Below, piece by piece: positions 3,948 to 10,388 of a DNA stretch of 10,436 nucleotides. The DNA lies in UHGV virus genome UHGV-0239688. One strand, 5' to 3'. The translations under genes were made by a program, and so were the position numbers. The stretch comes from a virus. The stretch's first letter is position 1. Each line of letters starts with the position of its first letter. The notes under the pieces were generated by a model, which saw nothing but the letters and a program-made list of their open reading frames with translations, had not been told where the DNA came from and made no database searches.

Positions 3948-4241
3948 TTACTCACCTACCACTTCAGCGATGATATTTTTGTTATTAAAGTTTTTATCGC
4001 AATACAGAACATAATTATACTGCATTACACCACCAGACTTAAGCTGTTTTTGCACTTCAGCTTTCATTTCAGGACGATCGCGCTCAACGATATTCATAAT
4101 ATCTGCTTCAATTTGGGTTTCAACCTCAGTCTGATCCGCAGTCATAGACCATTCGCACAAATCTTTATCATAACCTGCCATAGCAGGCTGAGCAGCACAA
4201 GAAGCTAAAGCAAAAATTGTGGCAAAGATAAATTTTTTCAT
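3948..4241 (-). CDS. sp: Spackle (Sp) periplasmic superinfection-exclusion protein, 97 aa
   Basis: N-terminal signal peptide MKKFIFATIFALASCAAQPAMA; sequence and length match my recollection of T4 Sp (gene 61.3); position between 61 and dmd. Confidence 0.75.
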   Translation of the reverse strand: MKKFIFATIFALASCAAQPAMAGYDKDLCEWSMTADQTEVETQIEADIMNIVERDRPEMKAEVQKQLKSGGVMQYNYVLYCDKNFNNKNIIAEVVGE

Positions 4242-4269: not shown

Positions 4270-4298
4270 ATAGTATCTCAATTTCCAACAAAAGTAAA
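4270..4298 (-). promoter_or_regulatory. Candidate early promoter upstream of sp (TTTACT, 17 bp, TACTAT)
   Basis: Minus-strand reading tgTTTACTtttgttggaaattgagaTACTATataaac: -35 at 4298..4293, -10 at 4275..4270. Confidence 0.4.
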
Positions 4299-4301
4299 CA
4301 G

Positions 4302-4772: not shown

Positions 4773-4801
4773 ACTATACCATAGTCTTGTCAGCTTGTAA
4801 A
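4773..4801 (-). promoter_or_regulatory. Early promoter for dmd (TTTACA, 17 bp, TATAGT)
   Basis: Minus-strand reading gTTTACAagctgacaagactatggTATAGT, immediately after the gene 41 stop; -35 at 4801..4796, -10 at 4778..4773. A 9-bp inverted repeat (4765..4773 / 4782..4790) overlaps the spacer and -10. Confidence 0.5.
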
Positions 4802-6229
4802 CTAAAATTTTAATTCATTTGCCAAAGCATCTAACTGAGCTCGAGTCGATTCGTTTCTTTGATAGCGATTCTGCTCAGCTTGTATCTGTTGTGAACCTGC
4901 TACCTCACTCACTTCAGTTGGAGTAGAATCTTGTTCAATTTCTACCCATTTCTGATTTCCTTTTTGAACACCCATCAAAAACTTATTCCATTTATTCTTA
5001 TCACCATATCGTGATTTGATTTGCTTAATAAGTTGTTGTTCAGCAGCTGCTAACTCCTCGGTTTCAATGACCGCAAGCATAAAATCAGCTGTTGCTGGAA
5101 GACCGGCAGATTCTGCAATATCGCTCATGTTAACATCAGAAGAATCCCAAGCTTGTTTACCAACCTGTGCTGCAGTCCAAAGAACAGTTTCGGTTTCAAC
5201 AGCAAGAGCACGTAATTCCTCTGCAATGGCTTTAACAGTTGTGTAACTATTTTCTGAGTAAACTCTAATGCGGCAAGATTTACAAATACCCAGATAGTCG
5301 ACAATAATGATTGTTGGAACAAAATTCTTCTTGAGCTTTAATTCGTTTAAAAGCGATCGAAATGTATTAGCATCTGCTCCACCAGTAGGATACTGTTTAA
5401 CTATTAAACGACCGAGAGTAGATTTCTCGCGCCATTTTTCCATTTTTCCTTTATACTCAGCGTAAGAAATATGCCCATCATCAATATCATCAAGAGAAAC
5501 ATCAAGCATATTAGCATCAATACGCTTAGCACAGACTTCTTCTGCCATTTCCATGGAAATGTAAAGAACATTATGTCCGAGCTGCAAATAATCTGCTGCC
5601 AATGAACACAATCCTAATGACTTACCAACGTTAACTCCAGCCATTAAAACGTTCAGTGTTCCAGTCTCAGCTCCGCCTTTAGTAATTTTGTTTAGAATTC
5701 TGAGTTTAAATGGAACCTTACGAGCTTTATTCATATAAGATAGCCAACGTGCTTCGTAGTCATCCATCCAATCATGACCAACGTAACTATCAAATGAAAT
5801 TGATAATGCCTGGCGCATGATGTCAGGAATAGCACCAACATCCGGCATTTTCTTATTTCGTTTTTCCGGAGGAAGCTCAGCATTAGTTTGAATTTCGATT
5901 ATTTTAGACGTAGCATTAAACATCGCCCTTTGCTGAACATATTTTTCTGTTTCTTTTACTAACCAGCTGTGGTCTTCCGGAGAATCAGCCAGTTTTGAAA
6001 TAAGTGTTTTTACACCAGAATATTCTGTTTCAGTAAATGAACTATTTTCTAATGCAACATTTAACGCATTAATAGATGGAACGCTATGATACTCATTAAC
6101 ATGAGATTTAATTAATTTGAATGTATTTTTAGCTGGACCACTTTCAAAATATTCTGAATCCATATATGGCCAAACTTTTGAAAAATAAGCTTGATCAAAT
6201 ATGAGATGAGAAAGAATAATTTCTACCAC
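4802..6229 (-). CDS. 41: Replicative DNA helicase (T4 gp41, DnaB-like), 475 aa
   Basis: Walker A GVNVGKS; length and N-terminus MVEIILSHLIF match T4 gp41; the initiation codon is GTG (6229..6227) preceded by AAGGAG at 5-nt spacing. Confidence 0.9.
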   Translation of the reverse strand: MVEIILSHLIFDQAYFSKVWPYMDSEYFESGPAKNTFKLIKSHVNEYHSVPSINALNVALENSSFTETEYSGVKTLISKLADSPEDHSWLVKETEKYVQQRAMFNATSKIIEIQTNAELPPEKRNKKMPDVGAIPDIMRQALSISFDSYVGHDWMDDYEARWLSYMNKARKVPFKLRILNKITKGGAETGTLNVLMAGVNVGKSLGLCSLAADYLQLGHNVLYISMEMAEEVCAKRIDANMLDVSLDDIDDGHISYAEYKGKMEKWREKSTLGRLIVKQYPTGGADANTFRSLLNELKLKKNFVPTIIIVDYLGICKSCRIRVYSENSYTTVKAIAEELRALAVETETVLWTAAQVGKQAWDSSDVNMSDIAESAGLPATADFMLAVIETEELAAAEQQLIKQIKSRYGDKNKWNKFLMGVQKGNQKWVEIEQDSTPTEVSEVAGSQQIQAEQNRYQRNESTRAQLDALANELKF

Positions 6230-6583: not shown

Positions 6584-7757
6584 TAAATTCTTCCATATCA
6601 CTTAACTGTTCTAGGTCAGTTTCTAAATCAGCTGCTGATTTACTTTTACTTTCTGGAGATTTAAATTTTTCAACCTTTGAGTTAATCAATTCATCGACTT
6701 CAGCCTCAACAATTTCATTACTATCAATAGCACCTAACTGATAAGCACGTTTAATAGCATCTCGGAATGGTTGATGCTTAAATAAAGGACCCCAGAATGT
6801 AGTGCAGTTGGTATCTTTTGCACGCCAAGATTTTTCTTCGCGAATCATCTCGCCGGTTTCTTCATCAAGAAATTCACGAGCATACCAGCCATTTTTTGGT
6901 TTTACTACAAATCCTAATTCTAGAGCCATATCTAACAATCCAGAATAAGGATCGATGCCACCGTCAAATTTAACATCAATAAAGAATTTACTTTTTTCTT
7001 TAACGGTACGAGATTTTTCTACATTTAGAACAAATTGATACCCCTGAAGATCAGAACCATCTTTAATCTGGCGTTTACCGATAATGAATACAGTATCAGC
7101 CGAATACATTACGCCTGTACCACCTGTCATCACGGTTTTACTAAACATTTCAATTGTTTCAATTGTATGGTTAACCGCAACACATGGAATATTTTTAATG
7201 CTAAAATAAGGAGTAACAATACGGAATAATGACTTCAGTGATTTAGCACGAGTCATATCTGCCACAGATTTTTCATTCAAGGCATCTTCAGTTTCTTTCT
7301 TAGAAGCCATATTACCAATTGAGTCGATGAATACTATAACCTTTTCACCACGCTCAATAGCTTCAAGCTGATTCACCATATCAATTTTCAGCTGTTCAAC
7401 TGACTGAATTGGCGTATGAATTACTCGTTCCGGGTCAACTCCCATGGATCGCAAATAAGCTGGAGTAATACCAAATTCGCTATCATAGAATAGACAAACC
7501 GCGTCAGGATATTTGTTCAAATATGCCGCAACCATAGTCAAAGACATATTTGATTTAAAGTGTTTAGAAGGCCCTGCGAAAATAGTTAAACCAGACTGCA
7601 TTCCACCATCAATCGCACCGGAAATAGCGATATTAAGCATTGGAATTTTTGTACGAATTACATCCTTTTCATTAAAGAATTTAGATGTAGTCAGTTCAGC
7701 AGTCATTTTAGAAGTGGAAGCTTTAATCAAACGGGATTTTAAATCTGCAATAGACAT
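6576..7757 (-). CDS. uvsX: UvsX recombinase (RecA/Rad51 family), 393 aa
   Basis: Walker A GPSKHFKS; C-terminal half agrees with my recollection of T4 UvsX, N-terminal half diverges in places (so a relative, not T4 itself); synteny. Confidence 0.93.
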   Translation of the reverse strand: MSIADLKSRLIKASTSKMTAELTTSKFFNEKDVIRTKIPMLNIAISGAIDGGMQSGLTIFAGPSKHFKSNMSLTMVAAYLNKYPDAVCLFYDSEFGITPAYLRSMGVDPERVIHTPIQSVEQLKIDMVNQLEAIERGEKVIVFIDSIGNMASKKETEDALNEKSVADMTRAKSLKSLFRIVTPYFSIKNIPCVAVNHTIETIEMFSKTVMTGGTGVMYSADTVFIIGKRQIKDGSDLQGYQFVLNVEKSRTVKEKSKFFIDVKFDGGIDPYSGLLDMALELGFVVKPKNGWYAREFLDEETGEMIREEKSWRAKDTNCTTFWGPLFKHQPFRDAIKRAYQLGAIDSNEIVEAEVDELINSKVEKFKSPESKSKSAADLETDLEQLSDMEEFNE

Positions 7758-7810
7758 TCATTTTTTCCATAGGCATCATTATATTTTCCTCACTGGTTAA
7801 AGATAGAATA

Positions 7811-7836
7811 ATTATAACACAATAAATTTAGGCATT
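7811..7836 (-). promoter_or_regulatory. Candidate promoter upstream of uvsX (extended -10 TGtTATAAT with degenerate MotA box)
   Basis: Minus-strand reading aaTGCCTAAatttattgTGtTATAAT; -10 at 7816..7811, TG at 7819..7818; the MotA-box-like element has two mismatches to TGCTTtA. Confidence 0.35.
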
Positions 7837-8677
7837 AATCAACTGCTATTGGATGAATAGCATTAAACTTATGAAATGCTTCTGATTTTTCTTTACGCGA
7901 AACACACATGCGAAGAACCTTTAATGGTTCGTCTTCTTCACCCAACGATTTTCGTTTTTCAATATTAGAAGTTTTCCAACGAGCTTGCTCTGGAAACTCT
8001 CTATTGATTTGCTCAAGCGCTCTATTATGTTTAGAATTACTACGAATTGAACTACACCCACCAGGAGCGTGTGATTTTCCAGATACAACTAGATATTTGA
8101 ACAAGGCCAAATGCGGATAACCTTGATTAATTAAATTGAGAAATGCATACATATCTTCGCATAAATCAATTTTTCCATACCCAATTTGTTCTGTGGTAAG
8201 TTTTCCGAGGTCATACCATGTATTCGTGAATCCGTATGAGTTTTCACGATAATTACCCCAAGATGAAGTAATTTTAAAAATTGGTAGACGAGCATGACCG
8301 TGATAATACCCGCAATCCATGGCATCTTCAACGTATTGAATCAATTCATAGAACTGTTCACGAGTCAATTGATTGACTTTATCTACACAACGACGATCAT
8401 CTCTTTTTCGCATTGAACTCATACGAATAGTAGTATCATCGTCAATCATCCAGATTCGTTGACCTGCATACATATCAGTAATTGCTTTACGAGTACCGGC
8501 AATTCCGTTTACATCATCAGGAATAGTTATAATTTTAGCTCTAGACCCATAGGCATCATAATAAGCTTTTTCTTCGTGTTCACGCACTACAATATGAGGT
8601 TCATAATCAGTCGGAAACATATCAAGGGCAGAAACTGCCCCGACACGCTGATAACTTGGAATTACGAATTGAATCAT
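7835..8677 (-). CDS. Putative DNA glycosyltransferase (GT-A-like), 280 aa, at the locus occupied by beta-gt in T4
   Basis: Start ATG 8677..8675 overlaps the gene 42 stop (ATGA); the track's GTG at 8683 is less likely. N-terminal FVIPSYQR strand and IWMIDDDTT (DXD) motif are typical of GT-A enzymes; no resemblance to the 351-aa T4 beta-gt as I remember it. Confidence 0.55.
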   Translation of the reverse strand: MIQFVIPSYQRVGAVSALDMFPTDYEPHIVVREHEEKAYYDAYGSRAKIITIPDDVNGIAGTRKAITDMYAGQRIWMIDDDTTIRMSSMRKRDDRRCVDKVNQLTREQFYELIQYVEDAMDCGYYHGHARLPIFKITSSWGNYRENSYGFTNTWYDLGKLTTEQIGYGKIDLCEDMYAFLNLINQGYPHLALFKYLVVSGKSHAPGGCSSIRSNSKHNRALEQINREFPEQARWKTSNIEKRKSLGEEDEPLKVLRMCVSRKEKSEAFHKFNAIHPIAVD

Positions 8678-9414: not shown

Positions 9415-9521
9415 TTAAACCTCAATTGATACATTCATATTTAACTTGTAACAGTAATAAACTCCAACCTAAAATAATAGTTGGAATCATAAGAGGAACC
9501 GTTACACTATAGTATATACTT

Positions 9522-9546
9522 ATTATAATCATCAAGATTAAAAGCA
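9522..9546 (-). promoter_or_regulatory. MotA-dependent middle promoter upstream of gene 42
   Basis: Minus-strand reading gtgTTGCTTTTAatcttgatgatTATAAT: MotA-box-like TGCTTTTA (9546..9539), 11-nt spacer, -10 TATAAT (9527..9522); lies in the 153-bp imm-42 intergenic region. Confidence 0.5.
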
Positions 9547-9567
9547 ACACTGCTATAATTTTGCTTT

Positions 9568-9819
9568 TCATTCCTTCTCTCTGATGATAATTACTTGATT
9601 TGGTTGTGCAGACTTTTTAGTTTCACCCGCAATTGACCAAATAAATGTAATAAACCAACCAATAATTGACCAGTTAAACAGTAAAGATGTGAAAAAGATT
9701 CCTACTGTCGATTTTGACCCACGCATCAAGGCGATAAACCATGGAAGCATGTATATAATAATAGCCAACACACCTGAAACTAAAACCATAAAAATTGAAC
9801 CTGCTACTAAAGTTTCCAT
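9568..9819 (-). CDS. imm: Imm, membrane superinfection-immunity protein, 83 aa
   Basis: 83 aa, the T4 Imm length; two hydrophobic segments; GAGGAAA RBS; position between 43 and 42. Confidence 0.7.
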   Translation of the reverse strand: METLVAGSIFMVLVSGVLAIIIYMLPWFIALMRGSKSTVGIFFTSLLFNWSIIGWFITFIWSIAGETKKSAQPNQVIIIREKE

Positions 9820-9826
9820 GTTTTCC

Positions 9827-10207
9827 TCACTTAGTCAAATTTTTTACACATGAATTATAAGAATTCACTACATACTCCATCGGTGCATTTTTACCTGTAC
9901 GCCATTGGTAATTATTAGCCCAATTTGCCCAAAGTTCAGCGCAGTAGTTTTCAATTTTTTCTTCGCGTGTAATTACATCTGAATTACGATATGCTTGGGC
10001 AGATTCATCTGGACGAATAGCTTCGTCAAAATTCGCCTGCATTTGTTCTACTGTCTGTTTTGGAGCTTCTTTATAACACTTGACATTAGGATTATAAAAC
10101 TTGCTTGAACAGTTTACAATTTTTCCTACATCAGACTGATTTACTACTGGTCCTTGAGCTACACAGCCAGTAAGACCTAATGCAATAATCAAAATAGCGA
10201 TTTTCAT
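9827..10207 (-). CDS. Predicted lipoprotein, 126 aa
   Basis: True start at ATG 10207..10205 (MKIAILIIALGLTGCVAQ...) with GGAG RBS; lipobox LTGC after a short K-containing hydrophobic signal; the track's upstream extension to 10273 reads through the promoter. Cys-containing mature domain. Confidence 0.65.
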   Translation of the reverse strand: MKIAILIIALGLTGCVAQGPVVNQSDVGKIVNCSSKFYNPNVKCYKEAPKQTVEQMQANFDEAIRPDESAQAYRNSDVITREEKIENYCAELWANWANNYQWRTGKNAPMEYVVNSYNSCVKNLTK

Positions 10208-10241
10208 TTCATTCTCCAAATCCGTATCAGTTGATAGTTGT

Positions 10242-10270
10242 ATAGTACCATGGAAGAACAGGGATGTAAA
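10242..10270 (-). promoter_or_regulatory. Early promoter for the lipoprotein-imm unit (TTTACA, 17 bp, TACTAT)
   Basis: Minus-strand reading gtTGTTTACAtccctgttcttccatggTACTATac; -35 at 10270..10265, -10 at 10247..10242; downstream of the gene 43 terminator. Confidence 0.45.
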
Positions 10271-10354
10271 CAACTTTGTGAAAAATTTTTTAATGAATTC
10301 AAAGGGTCCAGAATCATCTGTTTTTCATAAGTATAGATTTATATTACTTGTATG

Positions 10355-10375
10355 AAAAAGGGACCCGGAGGTCCC
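10355..10375 (-). terminator. Intrinsic terminator downstream of gene 43
   Basis: 6-bp stem GGGACC/GGTCCC with UCCG loop on the minus-strand RNA, followed by UUUUU (plus-strand AAAAA at 10355..10359). Confidence 0.7.
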
Positions 10376-10388
10376 TAGATTTATTCTA

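Follow-up and report, generated by a model that had tools for sequence, protein, structure and literature searches.

The 126-codon ORF directly 5′ of imm in the phage DNA studied here is an ortholog of the phage T4 gene imm.1, by sequence and by position, and so belongs to a gene already catalogued and not to a new element. Its product is best explained as an envelope lipoprotein acting as a non-essential accessory of Imm protection, a reading as a whole to which we would give a probability of about 45%.

The DNA analysed (the window, 10,436 nucleotides) is a 10.4-kb piece of a Tequatrovirus (T4-like) genome. Its major genes all lie on the minus strand, in the order primase 61, sp, dmd, helicase 41, 40, uvsX, glucosyltransferase, dCMP hydroxymethylase 42, a 49-aa ORF, imm, the imm.1 ortholog and the last codons of DNA polymerase 43 (Table 1). 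The right-hand kilobase matches 520 phage records, with Yersinia phage PST as the best of them (98% identity).

The minus-strand ORF was listed as 9827..10273 (148 aa, TTG start), and an in-frame ATG at 10207 yields a protein of 126 aa that begins with MKIAILIIALGLTGCVAQGP. As the TTG sits 5′ of the predicted promoter, the shorter product of 126 aa is to be preferred, and its ATG is preceded by a ribosome-binding site. The 126-aa ORF directly upstream of imm, as described in the original prediction, was therefore recovered in the same place. The protein is identical to T4 Imm.1 (NP_049661.1; UniProt P18057 in the supplement of PMC9697503) at 123 of 125 positions (98%). The two proteins differ at two residues of the signal peptide (I7V and T13A) and by one extra C-terminal Lys, which keeps the lengths within one residue, and position, promoter and 5′ leader are the same. 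T4 imm.1 (26636..27013) is found between 43 and imm, and the order 43-imm.1-imm-42 is shared by the window, T4 and PST, with a gap between imm.1 and imm of 7 nt in the window versus 11 nt in T4. The original prediction had known of no such lipoprotein at this position in T4, where there is in fact one, and the novelty that it implied for the ORF falls with it. The protein matches Pfam DUF5481 (PF17578) over the whole profile (positions 1–103 of 103; 239.2 bits against a cut-off of 27, E = 5.4e-72) and phrog_1754 over residues 1–126 (profile positions 2–148, E = 9.3e-44), the latter being annotated in PHROG as "unknown function".

The RefSeq product name of T4 imm.1, iduronate sulfatase, was rejected, this being a 125-aa protein without a sulfatase domain. 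The name has been copied from T4 (imm.1 at 12637–13014 of our T4 locus, L001) onto other phage records, and further records say "immunity"; both look like annotation artefacts. No published function of imm.1, DUF5481, PF17578 or phrog_1754, nor any experimental account of lipidation of the protein, was found in the literature library searched. The sole comparative-genomics paper found that names Imm.1 treats it as a T4-group marker and, speculatively, considers a part in exclusion (PMC5885020).

Table 1 Features of the right-hand part of the window and related promoter matches.
Feature	Position	Strand	Remarks
T4-type early promoter matches, others	855–884, 4270–4299, 4773–4802	-	5′ of an mrh.2-like ORF, sp and dmd, respectively
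49-aa very hydrophobic ORF	9422..9571	-	possible third gene of the conserved module; phrog_3610, 9.5e-26; start overlaps imm stop (ATGA)
imm	9568–9819	-	superinfection immunity membrane protein, 83 aa; Pfam Imm_superinfect 7.7e-16, phrog_1039
imm ribosome-binding site, GAGG	9825..9828	-	overlaps imm.1 stop codon TGA (9829–9827); read from sequence
imm.1 ortholog	9827..10207	-	126 aa; Pfam and PHROG profile matches, T4 alignment
Signal peptide and lipobox Cys	10163..10207	-	codons 1–15; predicted signal peptidase II site between G14 and C15; lipobox rule
imm.1 Shine-Dalgarno, GGAG	10214..10217	-	6 nt before the ATG at 10207; read from sequence
T4-type early promoter of imm.1	10242..10271	-	GTTTACA-17 nt-(TG)GTACTAT; -10 TACTAT, TG-extended; A/T-rich stretch upstream
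Terminator-like hairpin	10359..10376	-	just after gene 43 stop; stem GGGACC/GGTCCC (AGGGACC-TCCG-GGTCCCT), loop TCCG, T-run

We regard as refuted the notion of an accidental or degenerate frame without a product, for which the small size of the ORF speaks and nothing else. T4 imm.1 is classed as "early-RNA_early-Protein" in a published data set (PMC9697503 supplement), which means that the protein is made, early in T4 infection. By tblastn, a DUF5481-type gene is present in 657 phage records, and this conservation, with a ribosome-binding site and a promoter, likewise speaks against a chance frame.

The signals around imm.1 were as originally predicted, namely a terminator after gene 43 and, beyond it, an early-type promoter belonging to the ORF. 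The terminator-like hairpin with its T-run is conserved in T4 and PST. The promoter hexamers are identical in these two phages, in which the sequence hardly varies from the promoter through the leader to the ribosome-binding site, and the A/T-rich stretch 5′ of the promoter reads AAAAAATTTTT. The T4-specific pattern GTTTAC-N17-19-TANNNT is enriched in the window, with five occurrences versus 0.31 expected, a number reached in 0 of 200 shuffles. The fifth match (8507–8535, plus strand) lies on the non-coding strand within the glucosyltransferase gene and is probably due to chance. A generic sigma-70 scan of the window returned 51 matches versus 45 expected, which is no enrichment; only the T4-type pattern was thus counted as evidence, and a sigma-70-like match inside imm.1 (10119–10091) was rejected as a promoter. 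A MotA-type middle promoter was looked for near the imm.1 ortholog, and none was found.

The start codon of imm follows 7 nt past the stop codon of imm.1, and the window has no T4-type promoter or terminator that we could find between imm.1 and imm or ahead of gene 42. Hence, imm.1, imm, the 49-aa ORF and probably gene 42 could share one early transcript. The claim that imm.1 is co-transcribed with imm from an early promoter is borne out as far as the promoter, the short gap and the lack of an intervening signal go, and co-transcription itself can soundly be inferred from this arrangement. It is not universal, since imm.1, imm and sp of Mosigvirus each have a GTTTAC promoter of their own.

The export signal was examined with a PROSITE-style lipobox rule (positively charged N-region, hydrophobic core, [LVI][ASTVI][GAS]C, Cys within residues 15–35), which among 193 ORF/start combinations in the window is satisfied by just two ORFs, the imm.1 ortholog and sp. 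The signal of the former, MKIAILIIALGLTGC, comprises K2, the hydrophobic core IAILIIALG and the lipobox L12-T13-G14-C15, with residues 1–14 as signal peptide, and four more Cys follow at positions 33, 44, 89 and 120. The canonical lipoprotein signal and the several Cys of the original prediction are thus present, as is a signal peptidase II site by this rule. The N-terminus of Sp (window 3948–4241, minus strand), MKKFIFATIFALASC, also fits the rule, with a Cys at position 15, and yet Sp has been reported as a soluble periplasmic protein with a mature form of 75 residues, the first 22 residues being removed (PMC7677548). The rule alone is therefore not decisive.

A stronger argument comes from comparison. 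In a 25-sequence alignment of the family, the lipobox Cys and the L-x-G before it are kept in 23 of the 25 clusters, and because the family is so divergent (15–43% identity to the window ORF, bar one near-identical T4-type cluster), this conservation weighs more than the rule. In the two other clusters (P0004 and P0008), a canonical AHA signal-peptidase-I site replaces the whole lipobox and the product is probably a soluble periplasmic protein, which suggests that the lipid anchor is useful, not indispensable. Imm.1 of the window might likewise be exported without lipidation, cut by signal peptidase I and left soluble in the periplasm like Sp. The behaviour of Sp under the same rule and the two AHA lineages would fit such a protein, and the small residues after the Cys make a signal-peptidase-I site conceivable (between A and Q of C-V-A-Q). 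However, the Cys, the L at -3 and the G at -1 persist in 23 of 25 clusters while their neighbours vary freely, which would not be expected if the Cys were removed with the signal peptide or were irrelevant to it. We therefore consider a non-lipidated Imm.1 improbable and lipidation at Cys15 highly likely.

According to the Lol sorting rule, an Asp at position +2 after the lipidated Cys leads to retention in the inner membrane, and other residues lead to the outer membrane. In the Imm.1 of the window, Val follows the Cys; among the family members the place is taken by V, A, G, S or Q and in no case by Asp, so that by this rule the inner face of the outer membrane is predicted, which points to outer-membrane anchoring of Imm.1. 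The precursor would be exported by the Sec route, lipidated at Cys15 and cut by signal peptidase II.

Within the family, Y38 (part of Y-N-P in the DUF5481 branch), R74, C89 and C120 are invariant or nearly so, and C33 and C44 are confined to the T4-type branch and to the two branches without a lipobox. Two AlphaFold2 models, weak overall (pLDDT 66, pTM 0.39–0.43), agree in leaving the first ~30 residues unordered and the middle uncertain, and in folding residues 81–125, C89 and C120 among them, into a helical hairpin predicted with confidence (pLDDT about 90). A Cys89-Cys120 disulfide would probably staple this hairpin. Mature Imm.1 would have a poorly ordered N-terminal stretch (~35–65 residues) with the conserved Y38-N39-P40, followed by the C-terminal helical hairpin. 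Neither a fold match of the model among known structures (PDB) nor a sequence match among PDB sequences was found.

The Imm.1 family is phage-only. An exhaustive HMMER search against 1.84 billion representatives gave 6 clusters only, and word-indexed searches gave 3, 8 and 21 clusters with phage sources throughout. The 21 come from the final profile search, of 5.8 billion clusters, and none has a cellular source name, the longer contigs being phage-sized at about 170 kb. Searches of PADLOC and NCBIfam with Imm.1 returned no credible match. The tblastn records split into ~502 of Tequatrovirus (at least 95% identity, T2 and T4 included) and ~155 of Mosigvirus (~34%). The Imm counts run parallel, with 502 records at 90% identity or above and 156 at 60–80%, and the Imm of the window is 100% identical to many Tequatrovirus Imm proteins.

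Other T4-like genera carry imm and give no DUF5481 match, and in every one checked a lipobox protein adjoined imm. It is encoded upstream of imm in Gelderlandvirus S16 (gp27), Klebsiella Jiaodavirus (a 147-aa protein) and Serratia PS2 (gp047), and downstream in Dhakavirus IME08 (orf44) and Gaprivervirus SP18 (gp045). All five match phrog_1754 (E from 2e-15 to 4.5e-52) and share with Imm.1 the lipobox, the conserved Tyr, the two C-terminal Cys and the place next to imm. They also carry an N-terminal motif, G-[DE]-V-V-x-x-S-E-V-G-K, after the Cys. Compared with the Imm.1 of the window, they are 20–40 residues longer and 19–24% identical, and they are missed by Pfam DUF5481. An hhalign comparison of the DUF5481 alignment with S16 gp27 gave a probability of 21%; the homology of this protein was settled by its match to the phrog_1754 profile. 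These Imm-adjacent proteins are, by profile and motif, distant homologs of Imm.1, and the family extends beyond what the Pfam model captures.

The association of imm.1 with imm turned out to be stronger than the original prediction had claimed, as the pairing is conserved in all T4-like lineages examined, despite relocation and inversion of the gene order. A phrog_1754 member adjoins imm in Tequatrovirus, Mosigvirus, Gelderlandvirus, Jiaodavirus, Muldoonvirus, Dhakavirus and Gaprivervirus, with the order flipped in Dhakavirus and Gaprivervirus, where it comes after imm. Four uncultured lineages have a DUF5481 gene immediately followed by an Imm_superinfect gene. In Mosigvirus, imm.1 and imm have moved jointly and no longer lie between 43 and 42; the order there is dmd-61.4-imm.1-imm-sp, 61.4 being a 61.4-like ORF. 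In Mosigvirus ST0 (L004 2968–4003; the same in L005), imm.1, imm and sp are contiguous and form a compact exclusion-linked envelope cluster.

The neighbourhood was then assessed in 80 IMG/VR loci encoding an Imm relative, which were searched with the family HMM for a member on the same strand within less than 400 nt. The pair was present in 23 of the 23 T4-like loci with Imm, and the family HMM found no member by imm in the 57 other Imm-bearing loci (0/57). A nearby lipobox ORF of any kind was seen in 2 of the 55 checkable non-T4-like Imm loci, and no Imm.1 family member was found away from imm. Since the pair has outlived at least one relocation and at least one inversion in mosaic early regions, this is good evidence, by association, of a functional link between Imm.1 and Imm.

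The imm module may include the 49-aa ORF as a third gene. T4 has an intact copy (L001 12228–12377), which neither NC_000866 nor AF158101 annotates, and Gaprivervirus SP18 (47 aa) and contig L014 each have a homolog behind imm.

An extra ORF of 78 aa, with a signal-peptide-like N-terminus (MKIIMGCLAVCLVALAAVPF), is present in 326 phage records between the same early promoter and imm.1, for example in phage vB-Eco-KMB40 (L003 1819–2055, minus strand). It is absent from the window, where its site would be at about 10208, and from T4 and PST. Matches of the right-hand kilobase to the phages that have it are split in two because of this insertion.

On this neighbourhood evidence, Imm.1 would cooperate in the envelope with the inner-membrane protein Imm in shielding the infected cell from secondary T-even phages. 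It might span the periplasm to position or stabilise Imm, for example at injection sites; alternatively, it might contact the tail tip of the incoming phage where injection takes place. A bolder version, which we find rather doubtful, makes Imm.1 the missing periplasmic partner of Imm in a trans-envelope module of T4-like phages, perhaps with the 49-aa membrane peptide, that closes the route of DNA injection to secondary phages; such a module could account for the way in which T4 immunity is established.

The gene imm is classically non-essential. Plasmid-borne imm alone reportedly excludes T4 (Lu and Henning, in 1989), and on that account Imm.1 would not be strictly required. In a T4 CRISPRi-ART screen, which reads fitness and not exclusion, knock-down of imm.1 had no effect on fitness and was scored "Not Fit" (score -0.77, p = 0.98; PMC11879866 supplement), and knock-down of imm was scored "Fit" (1.40, p = 0.022; PMC11879866 supplement file 15, T4 26607–26637). 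The imm score could possibly come from a polar effect on the essential downstream gene 42. The dispensability of imm.1 in this screen and the 57 non-T4-like Imm loci without a partner argue against a strict requirement of Imm for Imm.1.

A serious rival, which we rate as less probable than the accessory role, is that Imm.1 is an envelope protein with an independent job, such as the modulation of lysis inhibition, protection from lysis from without or the countering of a host envelope defence. Its adjacency to imm would then reflect the clustering and joint inheritance of exported early genes. This would suit the dispensability of imm.1 in the laboratory, the Mosigvirus gene, which has its own promoter and clusters with sp too, and the faster evolution of Imm.1 than of Imm (~34% versus ~64% identity between T4 and Mosigvirus). 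It would also suit the insertion of the exported 78-aa ORF into the same operon, which suggests a hotspot for envelope accessory genes. However, an adjacency that survives relocation and a flip and holds in 23 of 23 T4-like loci is hard to attribute to inertia alone in mosaic early regions, and no member of the family was found apart from imm.

T5 Llp and the Cor family are superinfection-exclusion lipoproteins that inactivate FhuA, and the original prediction had named receptor masking among the common roles of early phage lipoproteins. As a protein of this type, Imm.1 would block the outer-membrane receptor of its own phage, thereby stopping superinfection and protecting the released progeny. 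Like Llp and Cor, Imm.1 is a small phage lipoprotein, predicted to be directed to the outer membrane and made early by a lytic phage, with a proposed protection of the infected cell at the level of the envelope. The Serratia PS2 homolog even has a weak PHROG match to Cor (E = 8e-4), which covers the signal peptide only. Unlike them, imm.1 is paired with the gene of an inner-membrane protein and not with that of a receptor-binding protein, and no similarity to Llp or Cor was detected for the window protein in sequence or fold, nor any structural match in the PDB. T2 and T4 differ in the receptors that they use, and T-even phages arriving at an infected cell can still adsorb to it and release their DNA into the periplasm. 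With a protein at least 95% identical across 502 Tequatrovirus records that include both T2 and T4, and with adsorption continuing, receptor masking is very unlikely, and this part of the original prediction was not upheld.

Imm.1 also has a parallel in T4 Spackle (Sp, gp61.3), a periplasmic protein of superinfection exclusion, which like Imm.1 is early, exported, small, Cys-containing and helical, and whose gene in Mosigvirus directly follows imm.1-imm. The two proteins have no homology, and the target of Sp is the gp5 lysozyme (PMC7677548).

The mechanism of Sp has been solved structurally (PMC7677548), whereas the way in which Imm halts incoming DNA of another T-even phage at the inner membrane has been unexplained since the 1970s. 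As a probable outer-membrane lipoprotein encoded by imm in every T4-like phage examined, Imm.1 is a candidate co-factor of Imm. If this is true, immunity in T4 would depend on an envelope-spanning device of two or three components and not on a single membrane protein; if the link is false, Imm.1 would be one among many conserved early T4 genes. What the present analysis adds is a wider, phage-only family, a conserved lipobox and the coupling to imm in all T4-like phages examined.

Elsewhere, the window differs from T4 in a few places. The segA gene seems to be absent between uvsX and the glucosyltransferase gene (7757–7835), and there is apparently no dam-sized gene between 61 and the ORF at 1595–2206 (2206–2382). 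Where T4 has b-gt, the window encodes a 282-aa beta-glucosyl-HMC-alpha-glucosyltransferase, a name taken from the PST record.
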